Of a stretch of 64,000 nucleotides of DNA, positions 7,804 through 62,013 are shown one piece after another. Under the pieces are notes generated by a model that searched no databases, had not been told where the DNA came from, and saw nothing but the letters and a program-made list of their open reading frames with translations. The stretch is from Betaproteobacteria bacterium Ga0077527. GTDB lineage: Bacteria; Pseudomonadota; Gammaproteobacteria; Burkholderiales; SG8-41. Each line of letters begins with the position of its first letter. Position 1 is the stretch's first letter. A program made the translations under genes and the position numbers. The stretch is taken from NCBI GenBank assembly GCA_001464815.1, contig LNDW01000023.1, positions 15,529 through 79,528 of the forward strand. The letters are read 5' to 3'.

Positions 7804-9843
7804 TCACGCGGCCTGCAGCGTCATGCCATTGTGTCGCAACAGCGCATCGATCTTCGGTTCGCGGCCGCGGAAGGCAACAAAGGATTCCAGCGCGGGCCGG
7901 CTGCCGCCGACACCCAGCACCTCGTCCCAGAAGCGCAGGCCGGTCTTCGCATCAAGCACACCGTTTTCCTCGAACAGGCTGTAGGCGTCGGCCGACAGCA
8001 CCTCCGCCCATTTGTAGCTGTAGTAACCCGCGGCATAACCGCCGGCAAAAATATGCGAGAAATTGTTCGGGAAGCGGTTGTAGGCGGGCGGGAACAGCAC
8101 CGCCACTTCCTGGCGCACTTCACTCAGCAATTGCAGCGCGGTCCTGCCGCCGGCCGGATCGAAATCATGGTGCAGCAGCAGGTCGAACAGCGCGAACTCG
8201 ATCTGGCGCATGGTCTGCAGCCCGCTCTGGAAGTTCTTGGCCGCGATCATCTTGTCGAACAGTGCTTTGGGCAGTGTTTTGCCGCTGTCGGCGTGGCGGG
8301 TCATCGGCTGCACCACGCTCCATTCCCAGCAGAAGTTTTCCATGAACTGGCTGGGCAGCTCGACGGCATCCCATTCGACGCCGTTGATGCCGGAGACGCC
8401 GAGGTAATCAACGCGGGTCAGCAGGTGATGCAGGCCGTGGCCGAACTCGTGGAACAGCGTGATCACCTCGTCGTGGGTGAACAGCGCGGGTTTTCCGCCA
8501 ACCGGAGCCGAAAAATTGCAGTTCAGATAGGCCGCCGGGGTCTGCGTGCCGGCCGCAGTGGCGCGGCGGGTGATCGCGTCGTCCATCCATGCGCCGCCGC
8601 GTTTGGTCGGACGCGCATAGAGGTCGAGGTAGAACTGGCCGACCAGCGCGCCGGCCTTGTCGCGGATCGAAAAAAAGCGCACGTCGGGGCTCCAGACCGG
8701 CGCCTCGGCCGGACTGATGTTCAGACCGAACAGGGTTTCGACGACCTTGAACATGCCGGGGAGCACCGTGGTTTCCGGGAAGTACTGCTTGACCTCGTTT
8801 TCGGAGAAGGCGTAACGCGCGCCGCGCAGCTTCTCCGAGACATAGGCAATGTCCCAGGCTTCGAGTGCGGCCATGCCGAGTTCCTTGTCGGCAAATTCGC
8901 GCAACTCGGCCAGATCGCGTTGGGCATGAGGCTTGGCGCGTACGGCGAGATCGCGCAGGAACTGCATCACCTGCTGCGGTGTGTCGGCCATCTTCGCTTC
9001 CAGCGAATATTCGGCGTAGCTGCCGAAACCAAGCAGCTGCGCCATTTCGCGGCGCAGCGCGACGATTTCGGCGATCAGCGGCGTGTTGTCGAGTTTGGCA
9101 TCGCCGAATTCGGCGGCACGGGTGACGTAGGCGTGGTACATGCGTTCGCGCAGGGCGCGGTCGTCGGCATACTGAAGCACCGGCAGGTATGAGGGTGCAT
9201 GCAGTGTGAATTTCCAGCCGTCCCTGCCGTCGGCCTGCGCGGCTTCACGCGCCGCTTCGCGGGCGTCGTCCGGCAGTCCGGCGAGGCCGGTTTCGTCAGT
9301 GATGAAATGCGACCAGGCATTGGTCGCGTCGAGCAGGTTGTCGCTGAAGCGCGAGCCGAGCATTGACAGCCGGTCGCGGATTTCGGTGTAGCGCGGCCGC
9401 TTGTCCGCAGCCAGCTCGGCACCGCCGAGGCGGAAGTCGCGCACCTCGTTGTCGACGATTTTTTTCTGTGCTGTGGACAGCGTGGTGAAAGTGGCGGACG
9501 AGCGCAGTGCCTTGAATTTTTTGTACAGCCCTTCATGCTGGCCGAGCTCGGTGTAGTACTGCGAGATCTTCGGCAGGTTGCCGTTGTAGGCCTCGCGCAG
9601 CTCCGGGCTGTTCACCACCGCATTGAGATGGCCGACCTGGCCCCAGGCGCGGTGCAGGTGTTCATTGGCATCTTCCAGGGGGCCGGCGAAATTTTCCCAG
9701 GTCGGTGCCGCGCTGTCGGCGGCAAGCCGCGCGATCAACGCGCGGTTCTCCGCCAGCAGCTGGTCCACCGCCGGCGCAACCAGCTCCGGTTTGAAATCGG
9801 CAAAGCGGGGCAGGCCCGAAACATCGAGTAGGGGATTCATCAT
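7804..9843 (-). CDS. prlC: Oligopeptidase A (M3 metallopeptidase)
   Basis: 679 aa with the HEFGH zinc motif (LFHEFGHGLHH) and M3-family similarity along its length. Confidence 0.93.
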   Translation of the reverse strand: MMNPLLDVSGLPRFADFKPELVAPAVDQLLAENRALIARLAADSAAPTWENFAGPLEDANEHLHRAWGQVGHLNAVVNSPELREAYNGNLPKISQYYTELGQHEGLYKKFKALRSSATFTTLSTAQKKIVDNEVRDFRLGGAELAADKRPRYTEIRDRLSMLGSRFSDNLLDATNAWSHFITDETGLAGLPDDAREAAREAAQADGRDGWKFTLHAPSYLPVLQYADDRALRERMYHAYVTRAAEFGDAKLDNTPLIAEIVALRREMAQLLGFGSYAEYSLEAKMADTPQQVMQFLRDLAVRAKPHAQRDLAELREFADKELGMAALEAWDIAYVSEKLRGARYAFSENEVKQYFPETTVLPGMFKVVETLFGLNISPAEAPVWSPDVRFFSIRDKAGALVGQFYLDLYARPTKRGGAWMDDAITRRATAAGTQTPAAYLNCNFSAPVGGKPALFTHDEVITLFHEFGHGLHHLLTRVDYLGVSGINGVEWDAVELPSQFMENFCWEWSVVQPMTRHADSGKTLPKALFDKMIAAKNFQSGLQTMRQIEFALFDLLLHHDFDPAGGRTALQLLSEVRQEVAVLFPPAYNRFPNNFSHIFAGGYAAGYYSYKWAEVLSADAYSLFEENGVLDAKTGLRFWDEVLGVGGSRPALESFVAFRGREPKIDALLRHNGMTLQAA

Positions 9844-9968
9844 CGGATTTAATCAGGAAGACAGAAAAAGGAACAACGAACAGCATGGACAGCAGCAGAC
9901 ACGGGGTCAGACCACAACTCGGGCCGCGAGTTTAGCAGCCTCCGCCCATTGTGGCGCCCGGAAGATTC

Positions 9969-10004
9969 TATAAATTATTGATTTTATTGACTATTTTCTT
10001 TCGA
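9969..10004 (+). repeat. AT-rich element, family member A
   Basis: TATAAATTATTGATTTTATTGACTATTTTCTTTCGA shares the YATAA-N3-ATTGwTTT core. The opposite strand carries AATCAATAATTTA (9971-9983), matching the IHF consensus WATCAANNNNTTR. It spans the pyrC' stop codon. Confidence 0.5.
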
Positions 10005-11268
10005 ATACGAGATTGCCGCTGACCAGTGTGTGGGACACACGGCCGCGCAGCTCGTAGCCGGAGAAGGGCGTGTTCTTGCCCAGGCTGTGTAATGCCGACG
10101 GTTCGACGCGCCAGTCGGCTGCGGGATCGAAGATGCAGGCGTCGGCGGTGGCGCCAACACCAAGGTGTCCGGCGTCGATGCCGAGGATCGCCGCCGGTTT
10201 TGCCGTGATGTGGGCGATGGCGGCGGCGAGCGGCAGTTTTGATTCGGTGGCCCACTTCAGTGCCAGCGGCAGCAGCAGTTCAACGCCGGTGGCGCCGGAT
10301 TCGGCTTCCGAAAAAGGCAGTTGTTTGGCGTCTTCATCCACCGGCGTGTGGTCGGAGCACAACGCATCGATGGTGCCGTCGGAGAGGCCGGCGCGCAGTG
10401 CATCGCGGTCCCGCTGGCTGCGCAGCGGCGGCGTCAGGTTGCAGTTCGGATCGAAGTAGCCGATGTCCATCTCCGAGAGATGGGCGTGATGGATGCCGAT
10501 GTCGCAGGTCACCGCGATGCCGCGTGATTTTGCCTCGCGCACCATCGCCACGCCCTCCGCGGAGGACAGCCTTGCGATATGGATGCGCGCGCCGGTCTGG
10601 CGCGCCACCAGCAGGATCGTTGAAAGTGCCACGGTTTCGGCGATCACCGGAATCGCCGGCAGGCCGAGGCGGGTGGCGACCTCGCCTTCGTGGGCCACAC
10701 CGTGACGCGACAGCGCCGGGTCCTGTGCGCGCAGCCATACCGGAAAACCGAAGGTCGCCGCGTACTGCAGCGCATGCAGCAGCACCTGGCTGTCGGCAAA
10801 CGGCGCGTCGGCCTGCGAGAAGGCCACGCAGCCGGCATCACGCAACTCGGCCATCTCGGTCAGGTTCTTGCCCTTGAGGCCTGTGGTCAGCGCACCCACC
10901 GGATAGAGGTGCGCCTGGTTCAGGTTTTTCGCGCTGAACTTGAGCATTTCCACCAGTCCCGGCTCGTCGAGCGGCGGATCGGTGTCGGGCGGGCAGGCGA
11001 GGCTGGTCACTCCGCCGGCAATAGCGGCCTTCATTTCGGTTTCCAGCGTCGCCAGATATTCGAAGCCCGGCTCGCGCAGCCGCACTGCGAGGTCGACCAG
11101 GCCCGGGCACACCACCTTGCCGGTGGCATCGATTACCCGGTTCGCGCTGAAGCCCGCCGGCGCGTCGCCGATGGCAACGACCTTGCCTGCGGCAATGAAC
11201 ACATCGCGCTGGGTGTCGACGCCGTGTTTGGGGTCGATCAGGCGGCCGGATTTGATATGAATCTTCAT
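9991..11268 (-). CDS. pyrC': Dihydroorotase-like protein, probably non-catalytic PyrC' subunit of ATCase
   Basis: 425-aa amidohydrolase-fold ORF directly downstream of pyrB. The expected zinc-binding HxH motif reads GLVDLAVRLREPG (His residues absent), as in Pseudomonas-type inactive PyrC'. Confidence 0.85.
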   Translation of the reverse strand: MKIHIKSGRLIDPKHGVDTQRDVFIAAGKVVAIGDAPAGFSANRVIDATGKVVCPGLVDLAVRLREPGFEYLATLETEMKAAIAGGVTSLACPPDTDPPLDEPGLVEMLKFSAKNLNQAHLYPVGALTTGLKGKNLTEMAELRDAGCVAFSQADAPFADSQVLLHALQYAATFGFPVWLRAQDPALSRHGVAHEGEVATRLGLPAIPVIAETVALSTILLVARQTGARIHIARLSSAEGVAMVREAKSRGIAVTCDIGIHHAHLSEMDIGYFDPNCNLTPPLRSQRDRDALRAGLSDGTIDALCSDHTPVDEDAKQLPFSEAESGATGVELLLPLALKWATESKLPLAAAIAHITAKPAAILGIDAGHLGVGATADACIFDPAADWRVEPSALHSLGKNTPFSGYELRGRVSHTLVSGNLVFERK

Positions 11269-23150: not shown

Positions 23151-24720
23151 GGCCGTCCGCCGCCCGGGCCGTCGAGTGCCCGCCGGCACCGAAACCGAAC
23201 TCAAGCTGCGCGTGCCGCCCGCGCAATGGAAGCGGCTGCTGGCTTCCCCTCTGCTGCATGCTGAGCGGGTCGGGCGCGAAATCGAGCTCGAAGCCATCTA
23301 TTTCGACACGCCGTCACGCGCCTTGTCGCATAACCGCATCGCCTACCGCGTACGCCGCGAAGGCCGGCGCTGGGTGCAGACGCTGAAAGGCGGTGGAGCC
23401 GAACAGTCCGGCCTGCATACCCGCATCGAAGTCGAAGCGCCGCTGGCCGATGCAGTACCGCAGCCGCAACAACTGCCGACTAATGCCCAAACCGGGGCCT
23501 TGACGGCATTGCTGCGGACCGCACTCGCCAGCGAGACCCTGCAACCGGTGCTGCAGACGCGCATCCGGCGCCACCAGCGAGTGATCACGCCGGGCCGCGG
23601 CATCCGCATCGAACTCGCCTTTGACCGCGGTACGATCAGCAGCGGCGGCAAACGCGAGGCCGTCAGCGAACTCGAACTGGAGCTGAAGGCCGGCCCGGTG
23701 GAGGCGCTGTTCGATCTCGCCTCAAGGCTGGTTGCAGCGCATGGCCTGACGCTGGAACACCGTTCGAAGGCGGAGCGGGGTTACGTACTGCGCGATGCCG
23801 TGCCGCCGCTGCCGGTGAAGGCTCAGGCAGCGTTGATCGACAAGACAATGGATGCCGGCGCCCTGAGCCGCGCGGTGATTGGGGGCGCACTGGCCCAGGT
23901 GCAGGCCAACAGCCACGGCGTGCTGTGTCATGACGATCCCGAGTTTCTGCACCAGATGCGTGTCGGACTGCGTCGCCTGCGCTGCGCGATCGACTTGTTT
24001 GCACCGCAGCTCGGCGGCGCGCTGGAGACCGAAGCCGCGGCATTGCGTGAGATTGGCCGCGGTCTGTCTGCTGCGCGCGACTGGGATGTGCTGATTGGTG
24101 AAATCCTGCCCCAGGTGTTTGTGCAGCCTGCGCCAGGCAGCGCTGCACTGCGTTTGCAGAAGGCCTGCGAAGCAGCCCGGGGCAGTGCCAAGAGAAAAAC
24201 AGATTTGTTAATAAAATCAATTAGTTATAATCAAACAATGCTGGCACTGGGGCGTCATCTGGCGACGACCCCGGCGGCTGCGGCGAAGGTGCGCAGCGCA
24301 CAGCAGGTGGCAGCGAAGATCCTCGAGGCGCGCCATGCCCGTGTACTCAAGCGCGGCAAACACCTGCGTCGCCAGGATGACGAGGCGCTGCATCGCCTGC
24401 GTATCGCGGTGAAAAAGCTGCGTTATGCGGTGGAGTTTTTCGGCGGTTTGTTCGCCGCGTCGGCAATACAGGCGCAGCGCGCGGCGTTGACGCGGCTGCA
24501 GGATATACTGGGCCACATCAACGATGCGGCGGTGACTGCGCCGCGGCTCGATGAAGCACGGCGGCAGGTTTTGCGCGGTGCCCAGAAGAACAGCCGGCGC
24601 TGGCCCAAATCCGCAGCACGGGCCGTGATCGAATGGCAGCAGACACTCGCCGCAGCCCAGCGCAAAAAACTGCCGGCCGCGTGGCGTCTTTTCGGGAAGG
24701 CGCCGCAGCCCTGGCGCTGA
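23143..24720 (+). CDS. CYTH-CHAD domain protein (polyphosphate-granule associated family)
   Basis: N-terminal CYTH tunnel motif ETELKL and two CHAD helical repeats (HQMRVGLRRLR, HRLRIAVKKLRY). GTG start at 23143 overlaps the ppk1 stop; alternative GTG at 23176. Confidence 0.8.
   Translation: MSEAVRRPGRRVPAGTETELKLRVPPAQWKRLLASPLLHAERVGREIELEAIYFDTPSRALSHNRIAYRVRREGRRWVQTLKGGGAEQSGLHTRIEVEAPLADAVPQPQQLPTNAQTGALTALLRTALASETLQPVLQTRIRRHQRVITPGRGIRIELAFDRGTISSGGKREAVSELELELKAGPVEALFDLASRLVAAHGLTLEHRSKAERGYVLRDAVPPLPVKAQAALIDKTMDAGALSRAVIGGALAQVQANSHGVLCHDDPEFLHQMRVGLRRLRCAIDLFAPQLGGALETEAAALREIGRGLSAARDWDVLIGEILPQVFVQPAPGSAALRLQKACEAARGSAKRKTDLLIKSISYNQTMLALGRHLATTPAAAAKVRSAQQVAAKILEARHARVLKRGKHLRRQDDEALHRLRIAVKKLRYAVEFFGGLFAASAIQAQRAALTRLQDILGHINDAAVTAPRLDEARRQVLRGAQKNSRRWPKSAARAVIEWQQTLAAAQRKKLPAAWRLFGKAPQPWR
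24191..24240 (-). repeat. AT-rich element, family member B (inside the CHAD gene)
   Basis: A 50-nt AT-rich patch in an otherwise GC-rich gene. The minus strand reads CATTGTTTGATTATAACTAATTGATTTTATTAAC; the plus strand carries AATCAATTAGTTA (24215-24227), matching the IHF consensus. Confidence 0.5.
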
Positions 24721-28454: not shown

Positions 28455-29978
28455 ATGGCCAAATCCGCTGCCGGCGACTACCTCGAGCGCATCCTCAACG
28501 CCCGCGTCTACGATGTCGCCATCGAAACCCCGCTGGAGCGCGCACCTGCACTGTCGCGGCGCACCGGCAACAATATCCTGTTGAAGCGCGAGGACATGCA
28601 GCCGGTGTTCTCGTTCAAGCTGCGCGGTGCCTACAACAAGATGGCGCAGTTGAAACCCGGGGCATTGAAGCGCGGTGTGATCGCGGCTTCCGCCGGCAAC
28701 CACGCCCAGGGCGTGGCGCTGGCCGCGCAGCGCCTGGGCTGCGCCGCGACCATCGTGATGCCGGTGACCACGCCCGAGATCAAGGTCAACGCGGTGAAGG
28801 GCCGCGGCGCGAAGGTGGTGCTGCATGGTGATTCCTATTCCGATGCAGCGGCGCATGCCCGGCGGCTGGAAAAGCGCCACCGGCTGACCTATGTTCATCC
28901 CTACGACGATCCCGATGTGATCGCCGGGCAGGGCACCATCGCCATGGAAATCCTGCGCCAGCATCCGCAGCCCATCGACGCGATTTTTGTCGCCGTCGGC
29001 GGTGGCGGGCTGATCTCGGGGATCGCCGCCTATGTCAAACGCCTGCGCCCTGAAATCAAGATCATCGGCGTCGAGCCGGTGGATTCGGACGCGATGTACC
29101 GGTCGCTTAAGGCGGGGCGTCGTGTCACCCTCGATCATGTCGGGCTGTTCGCGGACGGTGTCGCGGTCAAGCAGGTGGGTGTGGAAACCTTCAGGCTGTG
29201 CCGCGAGCTGGTTGACGAGGTGATCCGCGTCGACACCGATGCGATGTGCGCGGCGATCAAGGATGTATTCGAGGATACCCGCGCCATCCTCGAGCCCGCC
29301 GGCGCGCTCGCGATTGCCGGTGCCAAGGTATGGGCTGCGCGGCGCAAAACCCGCGGCTCAACGCTGGTGGCGATTGCCTGCGGCGCGAACATGAATTTCG
29401 ACCGCCTGCGTTTTGTCGCCGAACAGGCCGAGTTGGGCGAGAATCGCGAGGCCATTCTCGCGGTGACCATTCCCGAGAAGCCGGGCAGCTTCAAGGCCTT
29501 CTGCGAGCTGCTGGGCCCGCGCAACGTCACCGAGTTCAACTACCGCTTTGATGATCCGCGCCAGGCGCGGGTGTTTGTCGGCGTGCAGGTGCGCGACCGC
29601 AGGGAGACCGCGCAACTGGTGCGTTCACTGCGCCGGCGCGGGCTGCAGACACTCGACCTCTCCGACAACGAACTTGCCAAGCTGCATGTGCGGCACATGG
29701 TGGGTGGTCATGCGCCGCGTGCGAAGAATGAAATTCTTTACCGCTTCGAGTTTCCGGAGCGTCCCGGCGCGCTGACCCGTTTTCTCAACAGCATGAGCCG
29801 CGGCTGGAACATCAGCCTGTTCCATTACCGCAACCACGGTGCCGACTACGGTCGCGTGCTGGTCGGCATGGAAGTGCCGCCGGCCGAGCAGGGGCGCTTC
29901 CGCGCCTTCCTCGCCGAGGTCGGTTATCCTTGGGTCGATGAAACGCGGAACCCGGCTTACCGCCTCTTTTTGTCATGA
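28455..29978 (+). CDS. ilvA: Biosynthetic threonine ammonia-lyase
   Basis: 507 aa with the PLP motif FSFKLRGAYN and two C-terminal ACT-like regulatory repeats. Confidence 0.94.
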   Translation: MAKSAAGDYLERILNARVYDVAIETPLERAPALSRRTGNNILLKREDMQPVFSFKLRGAYNKMAQLKPGALKRGVIAASAGNHAQGVALAAQRLGCAATIVMPVTTPEIKVNAVKGRGAKVVLHGDSYSDAAAHARRLEKRHRLTYVHPYDDPDVIAGQGTIAMEILRQHPQPIDAIFVAVGGGGLISGIAAYVKRLRPEIKIIGVEPVDSDAMYRSLKAGRRVTLDHVGLFADGVAVKQVGVETFRLCRELVDEVIRVDTDAMCAAIKDVFEDTRAILEPAGALAIAGAKVWAARRKTRGSTLVAIACGANMNFDRLRFVAEQAELGENREAILAVTIPEKPGSFKAFCELLGPRNVTEFNYRFDDPRQARVFVGVQVRDRRETAQLVRSLRRRGLQTLDLSDNELAKLHVRHMVGGHAPRAKNEILYRFEFPERPGALTRFLNSMSRGWNISLFHYRNHGADYGRVLVGMEVPPAEQGRFRAFLAEVGYPWVDETRNPAYRLFLS

Positions 29979-30008
29979 TTTATTGTTTATAATCAATTTC
30001 TTATGATT
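29974..30008 (+). repeat. AT-rich element, family member C
   Basis: CATGATTTATTGTTTATAATCAATTTCTTATGATT fills the 24-nt ilvA-slt gap and overlaps both the ilvA stop and the slt start. 18 of its first 20 nt are identical to member E. AATCAATTTCTTA (29991-30003) matches the IHF consensus. Confidence 0.55.
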
Positions 30009-31943
30009 AAAGTCCGAGGGCTGATGGCGGTCCTGCTTTGCACACTGGCCAACACCGCATTGGCTCAGTCGAACCCGGCCGCGCTCGACGAAGCTTTCGT
30101 CTCGGCACGTGAGGCGGCGCGGGTTGGTGACTCGAAGCGGCTTGAGCAACTCGCGCCACGCTTCCAGGGTCATGTGTTTGAGCCCTACATCCAGTACTGG
30201 CGCCTGCGCCAGCGTTTTGAGGCGCGTGACGCCGAAGAGATCCGCCGCTACATCAGCGCCAATGCCGATACGCCGCTGTCCGACCAGGTGCGCCGCGACT
30301 GGCTGAAACTGCTCGGCAGGAACGCGCAATGGGAAACCTTCAACACCGAGCTGCCCGCGGTGGTCGGCGAGGATGTCGAGCTCACCTGCTATGCGCTGCA
30401 GGCGCGCGCCCGCGTCGACAGCCTTGCGCTGCGCGAGGCGCGGCCGCTGTGGTTTGTCGCCCGTGACCTGCCGGCAAGCTGCGATCCGCTGTTCGACCGG
30501 CTGATTGAAACCAAGCAGCTTTCCGAGGAGGACATCTGGGCCCGCGTGCGGCTTGCGCTCGAGGCGGGACAGGCAGGCCTGGCCGGCCGGGTAGCCGCCG
30601 ATCTGCCCAAGGGCACGGCGCCGGATGTACGTGTGCTGGCTTCGATTTCCGGCAACCCCTCGGCCTACCTCAACGAGCCGCGCGGCGAATTGCGCACCCG
30701 GGCCGCGCGCGAGACCGTGATGTTCGCGGTGCACCGCCTGGCGCGCAGCTCGCCGCAGCAGGCGGCCGCGCACTGGGTCAAGCTCGCGCCGCGTTTTTCC
30801 GAGGAGGAGCGCGCCTATGTCTGGGGCATGATCGCCTACCTTGGCGCGATGCGCCATGACGCGCAGGCGCTGGAATGGTTTTCGCGCGCCGCCGACATGA
30901 GTGACCTGCAGAATGCCTGGCGCGTGCGCGCCGCGTTGCGCGCCAAGCGCTGGCCCGAAGTGCTGGCGGCGATCAACGCGATGACGCCGAAGGAGGCGGA
31001 AGACCCGGCGTGGCGGTACTGGAAGGCGCGCGCGCTGAAGGCCACCGGCCGCGACGCCGAGGCGCTGGCGCTGTTGAAGCCGCTCTCGGCGGATTTTAAT
31101 TTCTACGGCCAGCTCGCGCTGGAGGAGCTGGGTGGCTCGGTACAGTCGCCGCCGCTGGCTTACAGGGTTTCGGACGCCGACATCGCGGCGATTGCCGCGC
31201 GCCCGGGTATCCAGCGTTCACTGGCGCTGTTCCGCGTCGATGCGCGGCTCGAGGGCGTGCGTGAATGGCTGTGGGCGATCCGCGGCCTGAGCGACCGGCA
31301 GTTGCTCGCCGCCGCCGAGCTCGCCCGCCGCCACTCGATCTGGGACCGTGCAATCAACACCGCCGACCGCACCGTGTTCGAGCATGACTTCGGCCTGCGC
31401 TACCTCGCACCGTATCGCGAACAGTTGCGCGTTGCGGCGAAGCAGGTCGATCTCGACGAAGCCTGGGTCTACGGTTTGATCCGCCAGGAAAGCCGGTTTC
31501 TCGCGCAGGCGAAGTCGCGCGTTGGCGCCAGTGGCCTGATGCAGCTGATGCCGGCCACCGCCAAATGGGTCGCCGGCAAGATCGGCCTCAAGGACTGGCA
31601 CTGGGGCCAGGTCACCGATGTCGAGACCAATCTTAGTCTCGGCACCTATTACCTGCGCCATGTGCTCGATACTCTCGACGGCAGTCCGGTGATGGCCTCG
31701 GCGGCGTACAACGCCGGGCCCGGCCGCGCCCGCGCCTGGCGTGCCGACCAGTCGATGGAGGCGGCGATTTATGCCGAGTCGATTCCGTTCAACGAAACCC
31801 GGGACTACGTGAAGCGGGTGATGTCGAATTCCAGTTACTACGCCCACAACTTCAGCCAGCAACTGCAGTCGCTGCGCGCGCGCATCGGCACCATCGAGCC
31901 GCGTGCCCGCGACCGCGAAAAGCCGCTGGGTGATACCCCCTGA
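30003..31943 (+). CDS. slt: Soluble lytic murein transglycosylase
   Basis: 646 aa: signal peptide, superhelical U-domain, C-terminal SLT domain (IRQESRF, SGLMQLMP, AYNAGPG). Confidence 0.9.
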   Translation: MIKVRGLMAVLLCTLANTALAQSNPAALDEAFVSAREAARVGDSKRLEQLAPRFQGHVFEPYIQYWRLRQRFEARDAEEIRRYISANADTPLSDQVRRDWLKLLGRNAQWETFNTELPAVVGEDVELTCYALQARARVDSLALREARPLWFVARDLPASCDPLFDRLIETKQLSEEDIWARVRLALEAGQAGLAGRVAADLPKGTAPDVRVLASISGNPSAYLNEPRGELRTRAARETVMFAVHRLARSSPQQAAAHWVKLAPRFSEEERAYVWGMIAYLGAMRHDAQALEWFSRAADMSDLQNAWRVRAALRAKRWPEVLAAINAMTPKEAEDPAWRYWKARALKATGRDAEALALLKPLSADFNFYGQLALEELGGSVQSPPLAYRVSDADIAAIAARPGIQRSLALFRVDARLEGVREWLWAIRGLSDRQLLAAAELARRHSIWDRAINTADRTVFEHDFGLRYLAPYREQLRVAAKQVDLDEAWVYGLIRQESRFLAQAKSRVGASGLMQLMPATAKWVAGKIGLKDWHWGQVTDVETNLSLGTYYLRHVLDTLDGSPVMASAAYNAGPGRARAWRADQSMEAAIYAESIPFNETRDYVKRVMSNSSYYAHNFSQQLQSLRARIGTIEPRARDREKPLGDTP

Positions 31944-32918: not shown

Positions 32919-34019
32919 ATGAAAATCTATGTGGTCGGCGGCGCGGTGCGCGACGAGCTGCTTGGACTGCCGGTGCAGGATCGCGACTATGTGGTGGTTG
33001 GTGCCACGCCCGAGGAGATGATCAGTCAGGGCTTCAAGCCGGTGGGCCGCGATTTTCCGGTGTTCCTGCACCCGGAGACCCATGAGGAGTACGCACTGGC
33101 GCGCACCGAACGCAAGACCGCGCCGGGTTACCACGGCTTCACCTTCCATGCCGCACCGGATGTCACGCTGGAGCAGGACCTTCAGCGCCGCGATCTCACC
33201 ATCAATGCGATGGCAAGGGATGACGATGGCCGGCTGATCGATCCCTACCATGGCGCCGAAGACCTCGGCGAGGGCCTGCTGCGCCATGTCAGCGACGCCT
33301 TTGCCGAAGACCCGGTGCGTATCCTGCGTGTGGCGCGTTTTGCCGCGCGCTTCGGTTTCAGCGTGGCGCCGGAAACCGAAACGCTGATGCAGCAGATGGT
33401 CGGGGCCGGTGAAGCGGATGCGCTGGTCGCGGAACGGGTGTGGCAGGAACTGGCGAAGGGGCTGATGGAGCGCGCACCTTCGACACTGTTCGCAGTGCTG
33501 CGCGACTGCGGCGCGCTGTCTCGGGTGCTGCCGCAGCTCGATGCCTTGTATGAAGAGGCGGCGATACAGGATGCGTTGGCTGCGCTGGATGCCGCTGCCG
33601 CGGCGAAGACCGGGCTCGAGGTGCGAGTCGCCGCGCTGCTGCGCGTGCTGCAGCCGGACGCGATCGAGGCGCTCTCGGCGCGGCTGCGCCTGCCGGCAAA
33701 CTGCCGCGACCTCGCGCTGCTCGCATCGCGCCACGGCAATACGCTGGCCGATGCCGCCGCGCTGGATGGGCAGGAACTGTTCGAAGTCATGGACGCAGCT
33801 GATGCCTGGCGGCGCCCGGAGCGTTTTTGCGAACTGGTCGAGGCTGCGCTCGCCGGCGAAGCCGAAGCTGCGCCGGCGCGTGCCCGCCTGCTGCGTGCAC
33901 ATCGGGCTGCGCTGGCGGTGGATGCCGGCGCGGTGGCGCGGACACAGTCCGGGGCCGATGCGATCAAGGCGGCGGTGGCTGCGGCGCGCCTGGACGCCAT
34001 TCGCAACTCAATAAAATAA
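32919..34019 (+). CDS. cca: CCA-adding tRNA nucleotidyltransferase, short form lacking HD motifs
   Basis: N-terminal VGGAVRD...RDLTINA polymerase-beta motifs. It is 366 aa rather than about 410, and the region where E. coli Cca has its HD/HHGH residues is Ala-rich with no HD motif. Confidence 0.85.
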
Positions 34020-34040
34020 TAAATAAAACAATGACTTATG
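34007..34040 (-). repeat. AT-rich element, family member D
   Basis: The minus strand reads CATAAGTCATTGTTTTATTTATTATTTTATTGAG. It is collinear with member E, including the terminal TTGAG, and covers the last codons of cca. Confidence 0.5.
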
Positions 34041-34077
34041 TAACATCATCAAGTATCACTGCGAAAGGAACAACGTA

Positions 34078-36184: not shown

Positions 36185-37365
36185 AGGCTGTGCGACTTGT
36201 CGCCGCGGATGAATCCGCGCAGCGGCGAGGCGATGCCGCGGCCGAAGGCGATGACCTTGAACAGCTCGCCCATTTCCGCCGGAGACAGCAGTTTCTGCAC
36301 GGCAGAGGCCAACGGCGCGTAACGTGCGGCATCGGCGGCTGGCACTTCAGAGAGTAAATCGGTGATGCCGCAGTTGATCAGGAATTGCGCCTGGTTGGCG
36401 TAGCCGAGCAGATCAAGACCATGGCTGGTTGCTGCGAGTGCGCTGAAATCCACATGCGCGGTGATGTCCTGCAGTCCCGGCCACAGGAAGGGATCGCCAT
36501 GCGCGGTGTGGCGGTAGTGGCACATCAGCGTGCCGCGGTCGCGCTGCGGGTGGAAATATTCGTGTGCCGGGAATCCGTAGTCGAAAAAAAGGGCTGCACC
36601 GCGGATGAGGCGCCGGCCCAGCTCGCCCAGCAGGGCGGGGGCCGCGAGGTTGAGTTCGGTTTCGTAATCGTCGGGCAGGTCAGCGGGCATGGCGGCCGTG
36701 AGTGCGGCGGTGGCGGGGCGTGTTGCCCAGGCAAGCTGGCCATCTGACAGCGTCACGCCGAGTTCCAGCCAGCGCCCATCTGCGCGGCGCAGCCGGTGCA
36801 CCGGCATCGCATCAAGCACTTCGTTGCCGATCACCACAGCCGAAAAGGATGCGGGCAGTTCATCCAGCCATTCGACGCGGGCAGCGAGTTGTGGTGCGCG
36901 CTCAAGGATCAGTTGTTGCTGGCGCTGGCGCAGGTCGGCGCTGACCTCGAGGATGCGGTAGCGCACCGGCAGCCGTCCCAGGGTTTCCAGGTCGGTGAGC
37001 AGTGTTGCGGCCAGCGTGCCGCGGCCGGCGCCGAGTTCGACGATGTCGGTCACGTCTTCACGGATCAGGTCGGCGACCTGGCGTGCCAGCGTGCGGCCGA
37101 ACAGCGGTGAGAGCTCAGGCGCGGTGACAAAGTCGCCGCCACCGCCAATCTTGCGGCTGCCGGCGCTGTAATAACCGAGCCCCGGCTCGTACAGCGCGAG
37201 GTGCATATAGCGGTCAAAGCCGATCCAGCCGCCGGCGGTGGTGATTTCGGCATCGATCAGCGCGCGCAACTGTGCGCTGACGGCAAGGGTTTCGGGGTCG
37301 GGCCGCGGCGGTGCGGCAGGCGTGGGCAGAACAGGCACCGCGGGATAATACGCTAAACTAAACAA
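36181..37365 (-). CDS. MidA/NDUFAF7-family SAM-dependent methyltransferase (DUF185)
   Basis: 394 aa with the GDFVTAPELSPLFG and ELGAGRGTL motifs; TTG start within an AT-rich patch. Confidence 0.8.
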   Translation of the reverse strand: MFSLAYYPAVPVLPTPAAPPRPDPETLAVSAQLRALIDAEITTAGGWIGFDRYMHLALYEPGLGYYSAGSRKIGGGGDFVTAPELSPLFGRTLARQVADLIREDVTDIVELGAGRGTLAATLLTDLETLGRLPVRYRILEVSADLRQRQQQLILERAPQLAARVEWLDELPASFSAVVIGNEVLDAMPVHRLRRADGRWLELGVTLSDGQLAWATRPATAALTAAMPADLPDDYETELNLAAPALLGELGRRLIRGAALFFDYGFPAHEYFHPQRDRGTLMCHYRHTAHGDPFLWPGLQDITAHVDFSALAATSHGLDLLGYANQAQFLINCGITDLLSEVPAADAARYAPLASAVQKLLSPAEMGELFKVIAFGRGIASPLRGFIRGDKSHSL

Positions 37366-37374
37366 TCATTTACG
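37345..37374 (-). repeat. AT-rich element, weaker family member G
   Basis: The minus strand reads CGTAAATGATTGTTTAGTTTAGCGTATTAT and contains the ATTGTTT core. It covers the start codon and first 6 codons of the midA-like gene. Confidence 0.35.
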
Positions 37375-37396
37375 AAGGGTTCAGGGTGGACAAAAC

Positions 37397-38146
37397 ATGA
37401 GCGATGCACTGCATGGCCAATGCGCACTGGTGACCGGTGCCGCGCGCCGCGTCGGTGCCGCGATCGTACGCCGGCTGCATGCCGCGGGCGCCAACGTCGT
37501 GGTGCATTGCCATCGTTCGCGCTCCGAGGCCGGAGCGCTGGCCTCGGAGCTGAATGCGATACGCGCGGCTTCGGCGGCGGTCGTGGTGGCCGACCTGCTC
37601 GATACTGCGGCGCTGCCGGATCTGGTGCGGCAGTCCCTTGCCGCCTTTGGACGTCTCGATCTGCTGGTCAACAATGCTTCCAGCTTTTACGCCACGCCAC
37701 TGGCCGATGTGGACGAAACGCAGTGGCAGGACCTGATCGGCAGCAATCTCAAGGCGCCGCTGTTTCTTGTGCGCGCCGCGGCACCGTCGCTGCGCGAGCA
37801 GGGCGGCGCGATTGTCAACATCATCGATATCCATTCCGAGCGGCCGATGCGTGATCACGTGATCTACAACGCCGCCAAGGGCGGGCTCGCCGCGCTGACT
37901 AGGGCGCTGGCGCTGGATCTGGGGCCGCGGGTGCGGGTCAACGGGGTTTCCCCCGGAGCCATCGTCTGGCCCGAGGCCGGGGCATGGGAAAATACCGTCG
38001 AGCGCGAGGCAATCATCCGTCGCACCATCCTTGGCCGCACCGGCGAACCGGAGGACATTGCCGGTGCGGTGCTGTATCTCGCCGGCGCGCCCTATGTCAC
38101 CGGACAGATCCTCGCCGTCGACGGCGGCCGCAGCATCGTGCTCTAG
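37397..38146 (+). CDS. Short-chain dehydrogenase, pteridine-reductase-like
   Basis: 249 aa with TGAARRVG and YxxxK motifs; layout resembles FolM/PTR1-type SDRs. Confidence 0.75.
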
Positions 38147-45089: not shown

Positions 45090-46067
45090 TCAGAAATCAG
45101 GCTTGATGTTGTATTCCTTGACCGCCTTGCTCCAGCGCACGATTTCGGCGCGCATGAATTTGTCGAACTCTGCCGGCGTGGTGGGCACCGGATCGTAACC
45201 GCGTTCGCGCAGCAGCTTGCCGGTTTCGCCCTTGAGCACGGTGGTCACCGCCTTGTTCAGGGTGGCCACGGCCTCCTTCGGCATTTTCACCGGACCCATC
45301 AGGCCGTACCAGCCCGAAATCGCGAAGCCCTTGTAGCCCGATTCGGCCAGCGTCGGCACGTCGGGCAATTGCGCGGCGCGGGCATTGGTGGTCACCGCCA
45401 GCGCGCGCAGCTTGCCGGCCTTGATCTGCGGGATCGCCGCGCCTGGGCCGGAGAACAGCGTCTGCACTTCGCCGCCGACTGCTGCCGCGACCGAGGGGCC
45501 CGAGCCGCGGTAGGGGATGTGTGTCAGCTTGACCTTTGCGGTCTGGAAAAATGCCTCCTGCGCGATGTGTGCGGTGACGTTGCCGGAGCCGAAGTTCATC
45601 GAATTCGGTTTGGCCAGCGCGAGCTTGATGAAATCGGCCAGCGTCTTCACCGGTACGCTCGGGTGCACGGTCATGATGTACGGCTGTTCAATCGTCTGGC
45701 TGATCCCGGCAAAGTCCTTGGACACGTCAAAGGGCAGCTTGGGGATCAGCGCCGGCGCCACCGCGGTGGCGCCGATTTCTGCGACGACAATGGTATAGCC
45801 GTCAGGGTTGGCGTCGGCGGCGATCGCGGTGCCGAGGGTGCCTTGGGCGCCGCCGCGGTTGTCGATCAGGATTTGCTGGCCGAGTTCGGCGGACAGCGCC
45901 GGCTGCATGATGCGCGACACCAAGTCAGTGCCGCCGCCGGGCGGGAAGGGCACCACCAGGCGGATCGGTTTGTTCGGATAGCCGGCGGTCTGGGCAAATG
46001 CCGGCGCGCTCAGCGCAAGGCAGGCGGTTATGGGGAACAGTGCGGGCAACAGTGCGAGACGGCTCAT
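45090..46067 (-). CDS. Bug-family tripartite tricarboxylate transporter substrate-binding protein
   Basis: 325 aa with a signal peptide and the YPNKPIRLVVPFPPGGGTD motif. Confidence 0.9.
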   Translation of the reverse strand: MSRLALLPALFPITACLALSAPAFAQTAGYPNKPIRLVVPFPPGGGTDLVSRIMQPALSAELGQQILIDNRGGAQGTLGTAIAADANPDGYTIVVAEIGATAVAPALIPKLPFDVSKDFAGISQTIEQPYIMTVHPSVPVKTLADFIKLALAKPNSMNFGSGNVTAHIAQEAFFQTAKVKLTHIPYRGSGPSVAAAVGGEVQTLFSGPGAAIPQIKAGKLRALAVTTNARAAQLPDVPTLAESGYKGFAISGWYGLMGPVKMPKEAVATLNKAVTTVLKGETGKLLRERGYDPVPTTPAEFDKFMRAEIVRWSKAVKEYNIKPDF

Positions 46068-46192
46068 TCGGGGACTCCTCGGTCAACTGATATGGGGTGT
46101 GTTGCTGGAATCGGGGGTACTTCTGACGGGCATGAAGTTAACATGACTTGGGCCCAGGCTAAAGTCTCTTACGGTATTGCCTTGAAATTAAA

Positions 46193-46216
46193 GTGCAATA
46201 AAAACAATAGGTTATG
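46193..46216 (-). repeat. AT-rich element, family member H
   Basis: The minus strand reads CATAACCTATTGTTTTTATTGCAC, sharing CATAAC-N-TATTGTTT with members C and E. Confidence 0.45.
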
Positions 46217-46250
46217 TTTGTCGCAAGCGCTCCCGGATTCTAAAACCAGC

Positions 46251-51898: not shown

Positions 51899-51920
51899 TT
51901 GTGCTGCTCCTGAAAAATAC

Positions 51921-51993
51921 GGGCGCCGTTGTCAGCGTGACCTTCCGAGCCTGGCCGGCGGCGTGGTGCCGGTCCGGTCGCAGCGCCCCTCGG
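51921..51993 (-). promoter_or_regulatory. SAH riboswitch aptamer, proximal copy
   Basis: RNA CCGAGGGGCGCUGCGACCGG..CCGGCCAGGCUCGG..ACAACGGCGCCC fits the SAH-riboswitch core as I recall it (AGGAGCGCUGCGAC / GCCAGGCUC / AACGGCGCUC). SD CAGGAG lies about 10 nt downstream. Confidence 0.75.
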
Positions 51994-52020
51994 GGGTACG
52001 CATGTTTAAAACTGAAAACG

Positions 52021-52055
52021 AAAAAAAGCGCTCGCACCGTTGCCGGTGCGAGCGC
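52021..52055 (-). terminator. Intrinsic terminator forming the expression platform of the distal SAH riboswitch
   Basis: GCGCUCGCACCG-GCAA-CGGUGCGAGCGC followed by U7. The 5' arm is the same GCGCUC that forms the aptamer pseudoknot. Confidence 0.85.
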
Positions 52056-52108
52056 CGTTGATTCTTGCTGAGCCTGGCCGGCAGTAACCGGTCGCAACGC
52101 TCCTCAGC
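52050..52108 (-). promoter_or_regulatory. SAH riboswitch aptamer, distal copy
   Basis: RNA GCUGAGGAGCGUUGCGACCGGUUACUGCCGGCCAGGCUCAGCAAGAAUCAACGGCGCUC. Confidence 0.8.
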
Positions 52109-52115
52109 GGCGCGC

Positions 52116-52121: not shown

Positions 52122-52162
52122 GCCGATGCTCGTGTGCGCCATCTCCGGTGGGCGGTATGTCT

Positions 52163-52195
52163 CATAACTTATTGTTTATAATAATATTTTTTGAG
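52163..52195 (+). repeat. AT-rich element, family member E
   Basis: CATAACTTATTGTTTATAATAATATTTTTTGAG; contains the 14-mer TTATTGTTTATAAT also present at 29980-29993. Confidence 0.55.
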
Positions 52196-52207
52196 AACAC
52201 TCATCGC

Positions 52208-52858
52208 ATGATGGATGCCGTTTCATGGCCGCTTGCTTTCGGCGCACTCGCACTGCTGCTGCATGTGGCGGGTTACGCTTGGTATGCGCGCGAAATCTTC
52301 CGCGGCCGCACCCGGCCCAATGCCGCGAGCTGGCTGATGTGGCTGGTCGGTGCCTGGGTCGAGTATGTGACCTTTGACGCCATCGACAGCCACTGGGCGA
52401 CCTCGGCGCTGCCGCTCGCCTGTTTTCTCGGTTGTTGCGCGATCTTCGCGGTGACCGGCCTGCTGCAGTTGGCGAAATGGCGCTCAGGTTCCAGCGATAC
52501 GGTGTATCTGCCCGCGCGCTGGCCGGATTACACCGCGGTCAGTGCCGACCTCGGCGCCTATGCCGCCTACGCCCTCACCGGCGGCGCGGCCTGGGCTCAT
52601 GCCTTCGCCGTGGTGACCTCCATCGTCAGCTTCATACCGATCTGGCGCACCACCTGGCGACACGGCAATGAAATGCCGGGACCGTGGCTGGTGTGGTGTG
52701 CGGCCTATCTGGCGATGCTCGGTGCGGTGGTTGCCGGTGATGGCGGCGAGCGTCTCGCGCAGAGTGTCTATCCGGTCTATTACTTCCTGCTGTCGCTGGT
52801 GGTGGCGGGGTTGTCGTTTACAGGTTTGCGTGAGTACTTGCGCCGCCGCTGGACCTGA
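52208..52858 (+). CDS. Integral membrane protein of unknown function
   Basis: 216 aa from MMDAVSWPL with about 6-7 predicted TM helices; no family recognised. Sits between the ahcY leader and metK. Confidence 0.6.
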   Translation: MMDAVSWPLAFGALALLLHVAGYAWYAREIFRGRTRPNAASWLMWLVGAWVEYVTFDAIDSHWATSALPLACFLGCCAIFAVTGLLQLAKWRSGSSDTVYLPARWPDYTAVSADLGAYAAYALTGGAAWAHAFAVVTSIVSFIPIWRTTWRHGNEMPGPWLVWCAAYLAMLGAVVAGDGGERLAQSVYPVYYFLLSLVVAGLSFTGLREYLRRRWT

Positions 52859-56854: not shown

Positions 56855-57691
56855 ATGCGCCTGAAATTCACCAAGATGCATGGCCTCGGCAACGACTTTG
56901 TTGTCATCGATGCCACACAGGCGCCGGTTGCGCTGACACCGGCGCAGTTGCGCTTTGTTGCCGACCGTCATTTCGGCATCGGCTGTGACCAGCTGCTGAT
57001 GGTCGAACCTGCGCGCAGCGCGGACACCGATTTTTATTACCGCATCTTCAACGCCGATGGCGGCGAGGTCGAGCAGTGCGGCAACGGTGCGCGCTGCTTT
57101 GTGCGTTATGTGCACCAGCGCGGGCTGACCGCCAAATCCGTGATCCGTGTCGGCACCCTCGGCGGCGTGATCGAGCCGCGGCTCGAAGCCGACGGCCAGG
57201 TCACCGTGAACATGGGCGCGCCGGTGTTCGAGCCTGCGCGTATTCCCTTCACGGCCGCGGCCGAGGCCCCGCTGTACGATCTGGAAGTAAACAAAAAAAT
57301 CATTAAAATCAATGTCTTATCGATGGGCAATCCACACGCCGTGCAACTCGTCGACAACGTCGACACCGCGCCGGTGGCCGAAGACGGCCCGCTGATCGAG
57401 GCGCATGCGCGGTTTCCGCAGCGGGTGAACGCGGGCTTCATGCAGGTCATCGACCGCAGCCACATCCGCTTGCGCGTGTTTGAGCGTGGTTCCGGTGAAA
57501 CACTGGCCTGCGGTACGGGCGCCTGCGCCGCGGTGGTGTCCGGCATCCGCCGCGGCCTGCTCGATGCGCGCGTGCATGTCGCGACGCGCGGCGGCGACCT
57601 CGTTATAGTATGGGCCGGTGCCGGTGCACCGGTACTGATGACCGGCCCTGCCGTCAGCGTGTTCGACGGTACGGTCGAAATACCGGATTGA
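56855..57691 (+). CDS. dapF: Diaminopimelate epimerase
   Basis: 278 aa with [30 protein letters not shown] and ACGTGACA motifs. Confidence 0.95.
57287..57322 (-). repeat. AT-rich element, family member F (inside dapF)
   Basis: The minus strand reads CGATAAGACATTGATTTTAATGATTTTTTTGTTTAC. The plus strand carries AATCAATGTCTTA (57307-57319), matching the IHF consensus. It encodes [12 protein letters not shown] just before SMGNPH. Confidence 0.5.
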
Positions 57692-60783: not shown

Positions 60784-61060
60784 TTCCTTGTTGGAAAATA
60801 CCGAGTCTCTGACAAATGATCTCGGCTATCGAGTGGTTCACAAGCACTAATTGGTCAATACGCCTGGACAGACTGAGATAGTCATTTTGCTGATTCCCCT
60901 GGGATCGGTGGCTTTGCGAAGCAAGCTCGCCCTGAATCTCGTTAATTTTATGGTTTAGCAGATAGTCAAATAATTTCGTATACACCACGTCTTTGTTTAG
61001 CCTAACGGTGGGCGTCACCGTCGGGCTACGCTGGGTACCGCTCGAATTCAGGAAGTTCAT
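60776..61060 (-). CDS. Hypothetical protein (94 aa, predicted helical)
   Basis: ORF in low-GC DNA with no recognisable family. The ATG at 61060 overlaps the GFA gene by 35 nt; an alternative GTG at 61018 gives 80 aa. Confidence 0.4.
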   Translation of the reverse strand: MNFLNSSGTQRSPTVTPTVRLNKDVVYTKLFDYLLNHKINEIQGELASQSHRSQGNQQNDYLSLSRRIDQLVLVNHSIAEIICQRLGIFQQGNG

Positions 61061-61424
61061 GAATATGCTTCATCCAGCCGAGCCGTTCAGCCGTCTGTAT
61101 TTGCACTGTCGGCGGAAGCGCCTCAGGATCGTCAAGTGTTGAGGACTGTACGTCGACAATTCCAGGGAGCACTGCTGCATTCCGGTAGAACAACCCGCTT
61201 CCACAGTCTGCGCAGAAACTGCGCATAGCGGTCCCTGACGAGTTAATCGTCTTTGGTTCCCCTTTCGTTAAGCTCAAGGCAGCTTCGGGAAACATCGCCC
61301 AAGCCACCATCGGCGCACCTGCACTTCGACGACAGTCGCTGCAATGGCACAAGGCAACGACCTTTGGATCCCCCGAAAGTTGATAGCGAATCGCGCCACA
61401 TCTGCACTGCCCAGAGTAAGTCAT
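61026..61424 (-). CDS. GFA/CENP-V family Cys-rich zinc protein
   Basis: 132 aa with the GFA cysteine pattern CRCGAIRY, CHCSDCRR, CADCGSGLF. Confidence 0.85.
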   Translation of the reverse strand: MTYSGQCRCGAIRYQLSGDPKVVALCHCSDCRRSAGAPMVAWAMFPEAALSLTKGEPKTINSSGTAMRSFCADCGSGLFYRNAAVLPGIVDVQSSTLDDPEALPPTVQIQTAERLGWMKHIHELPEFERYPA

Positions 61425-61678
61425 AACAGAACCCCCTTAATGCTAGGACCCAAACATCGATGAACTCACTGCAGTCTCAAATGGTGAGGATCTCTTGTGA
61501 CGTCCAACTTTAGTTGGGGTCGACAGTTTTGCCGGATAACCCGCCGACCTGTCTCCCTGACTTCCCGCCAGATTCGCAGAGAAAATAATTTATTATCAGA
61601 TACTTGTAATTCATCCGTCAGTCTGCATAACGTATTAAATCCGCAGCAAAACCGGCACGGATCAGTCTACATGCAGAG

Positions 61679-61909
61679 TCAATGTTTTTCAGGACGCCCC
61701 GGCGGCACATTATCAATCCCGCCCTCATGCCAGGGATGACACTTCCCCAGCCGCCTCACCGTCAGCCAGCTCCCCTTGATCGCCCCATGCGTGTCAATCG
61801 CCTCGCGCGCATAGGCTGAGCAGGTCGGATAAAAGCGGCACTGCGTGCCGAAAAAAGGCGACAGCAGCAGGCGGTAGGCGTCGATCAAAAAAATCAGCAG
61901 TCGTTTCAT
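61679..61909 (-). CDS. yidD: Membrane protein insertion efficiency factor YidD
   Basis: 76 aa from MKRLLIF with the [18 protein letters not shown] and CHPWHEGG motifs. Not next to rnpA/yidC in this window. Confidence 0.85.
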
Positions 61910-61945
61910 CCCCTCAGTATAAGCGTCACCCGCCTCCCTCTTTTT

Positions 61946-61958
61946 GCAACTGGGTTGC
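61946..61958. promoter_or_regulatory. Palindromic operator candidate 1
   Basis: GCAAC-TGG-GTTGC in the yidD / DUF4198 divergent spacer. Confidence 0.4.
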
Positions 61959-61984
61959 GCCAAAGCGCGGACCGCACTATCATC

Positions 61985-61997
61985 GCAACCCTGTTGC
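61985..61997. promoter_or_regulatory. Palindromic operator candidate 2
   Basis: GCAAC-CCT-GTTGC, 39 nt from the first copy and 17 nt upstream of the DUF4198 start. Confidence 0.4.
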
Positions 61998-62013
61998 AAT
62001 AAAGGAGGGTGCT

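Follow-up and report, generated by a model that had tools for sequence, protein, structure and literature searches.

An abundant 37-bp element with the layout of an IHF site, spread over-dispersed along the chromosome of an uncultured Burkholderiales bacterium

Introduction

The genome of Betaproteobacteria bacterium Ga0077527 contains short AT-rich patches that interrupt GC-rich DNA, and one of them fills the junction between ilvA and slt in the 64,000-nucleotide stretch analyzed here (C23:15529-79528 of the assembly, hereafter the window). This raises the question of what these patches are and which protein, if any, recognizes them. A sequence-only reading of the window had proposed that nearly every AT-rich patch is a variant of one recurrent element of about 20 nt, with the core YATAA-N3-ATTG(T/A)TTT and with matches to the consensus of the integration host factor (IHF). 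Binding or bending sites for IHF, H-NS or a Fis-like protein, a chromosome-organization signal, and a miniature repeated element were offered as explanations, and a genome-wide count against shuffles and the conservation of positions in relatives were suggested as checks. We found that the element is a block of about 37 bp with roughly 450 copies in the genome. On balance, we favor the view that these copies are high-affinity IHF-type sites that are kept by selection and serve chromosome architecture.

Results

The element is a 37-bp block that is abundant throughout the genome

The source genome (G000; genus g1, family f1) is a 91%-complete metagenome-assembled genome (MAG) of 3.42 Mb in 26 contigs with 63% GC, in which 3144 genes were called with a simple codon-bias gene finder. 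Element copies were called with an iterated position weight matrix (PWM) of 39 columns, and non-overlapping hits with a score of at least 25 were kept. This yielded 451 copies genome-wide, compared to about 9 when the genome was shuffled within 40-nt blocks, a control that retains the AT-rich patches. As single strings, AAWCAATNNNTTAT occurs 158 times in the genome and the pattern AAA(A/T)CAAT-N3-TTAT 146-158 times. The window alone contains four exact matches to the IHF consensus WATCAANNNNTTR, compared to 0.5 expected from dinucleotide shuffles, and none of 100 shuffles reached four. The 14-mer common to two of the copies, C and E (TTATTGTTTATAAT), is found twice in the window and is expected 0 times. 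The six strings quoted in the sequence-only reading were all located where they had been placed, and the family it described is real and larger than it had appeared. That nearly every AT-rich patch belongs to it was overstated: the window has 14 such patches, of which 8 overlap a copy, and the whole genome has 895, of which 478 do.

When the genome hits were aligned, the unit was seen to be an AT-rich block of about 37 bp with sharp edges rather than a 20-nt element. The edges lie at about positions 1 and 37, and GC-rich composition resumes at positions 0 and ~38. The consensus of the block is A-W-AAA-WWWW-T-C-AAT-AAAA-(A/T)-CAA-t-n-r-c-TT-R-WWWWWW. Read on the opposite strand, the previously proposed core, YATAA-N3-ATTG(T/A)TTT, becomes AAA(A/T)CAAT-N3-TTATR, and this equals the IHF consensus WATCAANNNNTTR except that its third position can be T or A.

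The most informative columns among the 451 copies are A17, A18, W19, C20, A21 and A22, followed by T27, T28 and R29. In the core, A17 and A18 are each found in 98% of the copies, C20 in 99%, A21 in 100% and A22 in 97%. Position 19 is either A (64%) or T (36%), and apart from this position the columns agree with the IHF core WATCAA/R. Exactly 4 bp past the core follows TTR, with T27 in 95% and T28 in 100% of the copies and only A (87%) or G (13%) at position 29. The N4 spacer at positions 23-26 carries little information (0.3-0.8 bits). An A-tract (AAA at positions 3-5, 78-82% A, W-rich afterwards) lies 15-17 nt upstream of C20. An A-tract at this place and an extent of ~34-37 bp are those of a canonical IHF site. 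Indeed, the H' site of phage lambda and the IHF-DNA co-crystal show the same layout, which is that of a full high-affinity site. Strong conservation was also found outside the IHF consensus, at T10, A12-T14 and A15-A18.

Seven strong copies and one weak copy lie in the window

The window holds seven strong copies (A to F and H) and one weak copy at 61577. A further variant, G, has the core only. Coordinates, strand and PWM score are as follows.

9962-10000, minus strand: copy A, AAGAAAATAGTCAATAAAATCAATAATTTATAGAATCTT, with the exact IHF core AATCAATAATTTA; score 50.5
24198-24236, plus strand: copy B, with the exact consensus AATCAATTAGTTA; score 45.5
29974-30012, plus strand: copy C, with the core AATCAATTTCTTA; score 40.1
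34009-34047, plus strand: copy D, with the core AAAACAATGACTTA; score 44.3
37360-37372, plus strand: weak variant G, with the core AAACAATCATTTA only; score below 20 in the window
46185-46223, plus strand: copy H, with the core AAAACAATAGGTTA; score 34.9
52156-52194, minus strand: copy E; score 45.3
57290-57328, plus strand: copy F, with the exact consensus AATCAATGTCTTA; score 40.3
61577-61615, plus strand: possible weak member, with the core TATCAGATACTTG (WATCAR-N4-TTR); score 20.7

Copy C fills the gap between the stop codon of ilvA (29976-29978) and the start of slt. Its location had been given correctly, but the best score is reached on the plus strand, and the sequence-only reading had aligned the overlapping half on the opposite strand. 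The slt frame most likely begins at the ATG at 30003, right after the TT(A) of copy C, and 30024 is listed as an alternative position. Since several relatives align from residue 1 of the 30003 frame, the start codon of slt is embedded in copy C.

Copy A is found directly past the stop of an amidohydrolase gene (9991-11268, minus strand) and 119 nt upstream of prlC (7804-9843, minus strand). Copy D overlaps the stop of a PolyA_pol-family gene of the CCA-adding type (32919-34019) and lies upstream of a glutathione S-transferase gene (34078). Copy H occupies the divergent gap between a tctC-like gene (45090-46067, minus strand) and an aminotransferase-family gene (46347, plus strand), and copy E the divergent gap between the ahcY leader and a gene at 52208 (plus strand). 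This leader (51914-52111, minus strand) carries two complete tandem S-adenosylhomocysteine (SAH) riboswitch aptamers, with Rfam scores of 59 and 54 bits, and copy E lies about 45 nt upstream of it. Two copies are located within genes: copy B in the CHAD domain of a CYTH-CHAD gene (23176-24720, plus strand; Pfam CYTH and CHAD), on the gene's own strand, and copy F in dapF (56855-57691, plus strand), where it encodes the residues just ahead of the catalytic SMGNPH motif.

B and G had both been described as weaker variants. Copy B is in fact a strong copy with apparently orthologous counterparts in many relatives, whereas G is indeed weak, having the CAA-N4-TTA core without the upstream A-tract and TCAAT block. 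In relatives, G is retained in place with PWM scores of 20-26, and it is embedded in the separately conserved sequence GGATAATACGCTAAA(C/A)TAAACAATCATTTACG upstream of the gene at 37430. The sequence around it, GGATAATACGCTAAACTAAACAATCATTTACG (37343-37376, plus strand), is conserved nearly letter for letter in many congeners. It has a bare CAA-N4-TTA core without the full block and could represent a leader or promoter that contains one IHF site.

The possible weak member at 61577 was absent from the earlier list and lies in a low-GC stretch. Between 60600 and 62000, the GC content is 54-55%, only small open reading frames (ORFs) are present, and the gene caller reported no confident gene. By eye, a GFA-like Cys-rich ORF (61026-61424, minus strand) and a YidD-like ORF (61679-61999, minus strand) can be recognized. 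This stretch may be acquired DNA.

Copies are maintained at their positions in related species

In order to follow single copies over time, we compared G000 with its relatives; the named ones are all MAGs of uncultured Burkholderiales, recovered mainly from lakes and drinking water. At the ilvA/slt junction, all 26 species with a Slt identity of at least 72% carry copy C, with its orientation unchanged, and it is absent from five more distant loci (Slt identity 58-64%). Across the 26 species, T19, C20 and A21 as well as T27, T28 and A29 are 100% conserved, compared to 42-62% for the N4 columns.

The copy inside dapF is particularly informative about how the element arises. In 22 of 22 congeners the length of the gene is unchanged and the series AAA ATC AAT GNN TTA TC is kept, with AAA in 21, ATC in 22, AAT in 20 and TTA in 22 of the 22 sequences. 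In outgroups, the sequence is equally long and GC-rich codons (DGRSVEIGAVS) fill these columns. TTA is a rare leucine codon in this genome, and the GC content at third codon positions is 0.33 within the element, compared to 0.75 in the rest of dapF. As the codons became AT-rich without any insertion or deletion, copy F must have arisen by substitution and been held by selection at the DNA level.

For a broader comparison we used the congener G011, which has 264 orthologues with G000 at a mean protein identity of 79%, and 215 syntenic intervals between adjacent genes. Both species have a copy in 21 of these intervals, only G011 in 8, only G000 in 4 and neither in 182 (odds ratio 119, p=7e-19). 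Thus, 72-84% of the copy positions are common to the two species. At the places of species-specific sites, the nearest copy in the other genome is more than about 3.5 kb away.

Some positions turn over. By our reading, roughly 8 of the 19 loci that cover its place carry copy D at the orthologous position. Between genera the positions change: copy A is present in G000 and G011, but not in genus g19, whose copies in this region are found within prlC and past its end, and family f8 carries a conserved prlC-internal copy of its own.

Copies prefer gene boundaries and have no preferred orientation

From the genes on either side, 446 copies could be classed. Of these, 358 are intergenic, although intergenic DNA makes up only 12% of the genome. 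The other 88 lie in coding sequences, 49 of them deep inside genes. Per kb of gap, copies are most frequent between convergent genes (1.39), followed by tandem (0.97) and divergent (0.53) gaps. The median distance from the center of a copy to the upstream stop is 26-28 nt. A stop codon is overlapped by 146 copies and a start codon by 56, and 19 times the invariant TTA is a TAA stop read on the opposite strand.

It had been stated that the orientation is unrelated to the neighboring genes, and this holds genome-wide: in tandem gaps, 123 copies point in the direction of transcription and 125 in the opposite direction. Neighboring copies are co-oriented in 212 of 427 cases, and no association between copy orientation and local GC skew was found genome-wide.

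The flanks of the copies were searched for terminal inverted repeats, target duplications and direct repeats, and none was found beyond controls. Inverted repeats in the flanks had a mean length of 4.25 nt, compared to 4.30 nt in the control, which differs from the bracketing by palindromes that is seen in the RIB/RIP elements of E. coli. Stable flank hairpins accompany 7% of the copies (control, 12%). In a scan of the window with Rfam, only the two SAH riboswitches were detected, and no family matched the element.

Copies avoid one another

Neighboring copies are on average 7.5 kb apart (median 6.5 kb). The coefficient of variation (CV) of these distances is 0.60, compared to 0.93±0.04 for random intergenic placement. 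Only 23 gaps are shorter than 2 kb and 9 longer than 20 kb, where 83 and 24, respectively, were expected. This over-dispersion is stable across PWM thresholds from 20 to 35. On a 343-kb contig of G011, 48 copies are present at a median spacing of 7.2 kb with a CV of 0.46. A model that refuses a new site within 3 kb of an existing one gives a CV of 0.57 and the counts of long gaps.

The element is found in lineages with IHF and mostly without HU

To see how widespread the element is, we surveyed 301 genomes of the order that are at least 90% complete and represent 60 families. The 14-mer AAAWCAANNNNTTR occurs 140-450 times in 25 genomes of the genus, compared to 2-20 times for a control with the reversed pattern. 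Strong enrichment was otherwise seen only in g19, a genus of the same family (1105 versus 40 in the control), and in family f8 (183-271 versus 24-38). The same extended block was found in the sequences of G240 and G031. In relatives that contain HU, matches to the 14-mer have GC-rich flanks and no AT block.

The genes for proteins of the HU/IHF family (PF00216) number two in G000: ihfA (C3:84255-84563, minus strand), after pheT, and ihfB (C8:21073-21357, plus strand), after rpsA. Their products carry the IHFα motif RDKPQRPGRNP and the IHFβ motif GQRIEIRGFGSF and fall in the α and β clades of a PF00216 tree. The DNA-contact residues αR60/R63/P65 and βR42/E44/R46, known from E. coli IHF, are conserved, as read from the translations. 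Near-complete congeners have exactly two PF00216 genes, compared to 3-9 in nearly all other families.

To our knowledge, HU is generally considered a nearly universal protein of bacteria. In the PF00216 tree, no HU was found in g1, G240, G078, G031 or G137, which have only IHFα and IHFβ, and H-NS (PF00816) was not found anywhere in the genus. G307, G035 and G041 have a normal HU. The only HU seen in f8 is that of G091 (C61:8345-8614), which has a long branch and an altered conserved arm (GHNPRTHMPI, compared to GRNPRTG..I in relatives); it may be a decaying gene. Two other f8 genomes have no HU.

In a tree of PrlC, f8 does not group with f1 but is the neighbor of an HU-containing family (support 99/96). 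The order inside f1 is (G307, (G078, (G240, g1))), where G307 has HU and G078 has neither HU nor the element. G078 (genus g18) shows 0 PWM hits and only 4 AT-rich patches in 119 kb, and it offers a natural contrast for the question of what takes the place of HU. Judged from gene content, loss or decay of HU thus accompanies the element in two separate lineages, but the link is not strict. The rule that HU loss always goes with the element was not upheld, as G078 is without both and G091 has both.

Discussion

We asked what the AT-rich patches in the window are. IHF is likely to be the protein that reads them, because the profile, the position of the A-tract and the length match a full IHF site, because IHFαβ is the sole DNABII protein of the genus, and because the block recurs in two lineages. 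Its function is less certain than the identity of its reader. A role at the level of the chromosome is probable, and we prefer it over local control because the copies have no polarity, use every type of gap as well as codons, are over-dispersed, and change position between genera while their density is kept. Under this explanation, about 450 full-length IHF-type sites would have been written into the chromosome by point mutation and retained by selection. Copies avoid one another within ~3 kb, resulting in roughly one site per 6-7 kb. The IHFαβ heterodimer, as the only HU/IHF-family protein, would bind and sharply bend each site. Without HU or H-NS, such an array of fixed bends could provide compaction or organize loops or supercoil domains instead of controlling single genes. 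A comparable part has been proposed for bacterial interspersed mosaic elements (PMC6907758) and for IHF as a 'domainin' (10.1101/2020.08.24.264499). Of the explanations first offered, IHF bending and chromosome organization fit all the sequence evidence (profile, A-tract, length, IHFαβ with its contact residues, spacing and the lack of a link to transcription direction).

Several observations weigh against this explanation. At the third consensus position, 64% of the copies have an A in place of the T of classic sites. The conserved TCAAT (positions 10-14) and A15-A18 lie outside the textbook IHF consensus, which would allow for another reader protein. Since a 3-kb exclusion rule reproduces both the CV and the long gaps, the spacing establishes over-dispersion but leaves selection for coverage unproven, and the notion that even spacing proves such selection was not upheld. 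The incomplete coupling to HU loss described above counts on the same side, and both trees rest on single proteins. Furthermore, no transcripts were seen: the window was found only in DNA metagenomes, and RNA runs match at most 8% of its words, these matches being conserved ahcY pieces from other organisms.

We weighed whether the IHF likeness is partial or coincidental and a different lineage-specific DNA-binding protein, e.g., a nucleoid protein replacing HU and H-NS, reads the element. The conserved columns outside the IHF consensus and the predominant A in the core speak for this, and with both HU and H-NS missing some replacement is plausible. Nevertheless, we consider it unlikely: the top columns match CAA-N4-TTR one for one, including the position that allows only A or G, the A-tract and the length agree with those of a complete IHF site, a conserved IHFαβ is encoded, and no candidate protein was found. 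H-NS itself was rejected as the reader, as the genus has no gene for it, and the motif is not Fis-like. Slightly less credit is due to the idea that the sites, whether bound by IHF or by another protein, do not form a genome-wide scaffold but act locally on adjacent genes, either as promoter architecture or by serving as roadblocks or insulators where operons end. Copies do lie close to gene ends and on many stop and start codons, some, such as copy E, are upstream of a regulated leader, and the RIB/RIP sites for IHF in E. coli are reportedly located at the 3' termini of transcription units. However, the highest density is found in convergent gaps, which have no promoters, the orientation is random, and the copies are over-dispersed along the chromosome. 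Copies deep in genes (dapF, CHAD) are conserved, and genera differ in positions yet keep the density, as in the prlC region.

A DNA uptake function in natural transformation, comparable to that of the uptake signal sequence (USS) or the DNA uptake sequence (DUS), seems improbable to us. The element is over-represented, occurs evenly in both orientations, is restricted to a clade, and ComEC is encoded in 24 of 24 congeners. As ComEC is near-universal in the order, being found also in almost all outgroups searched, its presence is uninformative. In the G000 assembly, ComEC (PF03772) had no match, which is probably a gap in a 91%-complete MAG. USS and DUS have a density of about 1 per kb and the element of ~1 per 7.5 kb, with 80% of its copies intergenic and 20% coding, unlike DUS in both density and coding share. 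In addition, the same 37-bp layout in two separate lineages corresponds to the consensus of a conserved cellular protein, and no receptor is known. Least credible of all is a mobile element resembling MITEs (transposable elements of the miniature inverted-repeat type) or repetitive extragenic palindromic (REP) sequences, or a promoter, terminator or RNA-level signal. The copies are short dispersed repeats at gene boundaries, and some (e.g., copy C) contain TATAAT-like hexamers. Mobility is contradicted by the absence of terminal inverted repeats, target duplications and palindromes, by the dapF copy, which arose in place without a change in length, and by the high positional conservation, and the suggestion of a miniature repeated element was dropped on these grounds. 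Promoters were ruled out by the 50:50 orientation and the peak in convergent gaps, which confirms the case made against simple promoters in the sequence-only reading, and terminators or other RNA signals by orientation, the lack of a hairpin excess in the flanks and the lack of an Rfam match. A replication-oriented signal of the KOPS or Chi type was also ruled out, as there is no link to GC skew.

If the copies are indeed IHF-type sites of chromosome architecture, a wider proposal can be made, which we regard as tentative and rather doubtful in its full form. In bacteria without HU and H-NS, the nucleoid might be organized by a scaffold encoded in the DNA, with hundreds of evenly spaced, nearly identical IHF sites, one per ~4-12 kb depending on the lineage, that fix bends or domain boundaries. 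Burkholderiales would have evolved such a scaffold on at least two occasions, in f1 (g1 and g19) and in f8. Work on IHF has mostly dealt with individual loci, and its part in the architecture of whole genomes is under debate, since natural sites are scarce and degenerate. This clade supplies ~450 near-optimal sites per genome, long-lived even within the codons of enzymes and evenly spread, in cells where the two other major nucleoid proteins are missing. It thereby opens to direct test the long-standing question of whether sequence-specific bends alone are enough to organize the chromosome of a bacterium, and of what determines how large a domain is. The motif has practical value as a marker, too. 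Most long AT-rich patches in these genomes are accounted for by it, so there is no need to label them as promoters or as foreign DNA.

In the literature searched, reiterated IHF sites were found only within BIME-1 (RIB/RIP), a class of bacterial interspersed mosaic elements (BIMEs), or within MITEs, and neither a stand-alone evenly spaced family nor an HU-less Burkholderiales clade was found described. Reiterated IHF sites as such are already known, and the stand-alone, evenly spaced family is a variant absent from this literature. The IHF consensus WATCAANNNNTTR is printed in PMC6907758 (in the table as extracted, on the H-NS row), where BIMEs are also discussed as supercoil-domain barriers.

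Compared to known systems, the element resembles RIB/RIP, the IHF-binding linker of BIME-1 in E. coli and Salmonella, in being a reiterated extragenic IHF site that lies mostly just past genes and for which a role in the nucleoid was proposed. RIB/RIP is flanked by inverted REP palindromes and has ~100 copies, whereas the element has no palindromes, ~450 copies, some of them intragenic, an even spacing and an HU-less host. MITEs of the Correia and ERIC type (reviews PMC2229807 and PMC3184786) are dispersed repeats that contain an IHF consensus. They are mobile units of 100-150 bp with terminal inverted repeats and target duplications, in contrast to a bare site generated in place. With USS of Pasteurellaceae and DUS of Neisseriaceae, the element shares hundreds of copies in both orientations, a distribution more even than chance, occurrence throughout a clade and tolerance in codons, but it is about sevenfold less dense, mainly intergenic, built on the motif of a DNA-bending protein and present in two separate lineages.

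The closest likeness is to the canonical IHF sites, lambda attP H' and cosB I1. Going by the reported anatomy of H', the element has the same core, spacing and final R, an A-tract ~1.5 turns upstream, a length of ~35 bp and the consensus in its 3' half. Canonical sites are single, locus-specific and degenerate, whereas the element is found in ~450 nearly identical, evenly spread copies with mostly A at the third position and an additional TCAAT.

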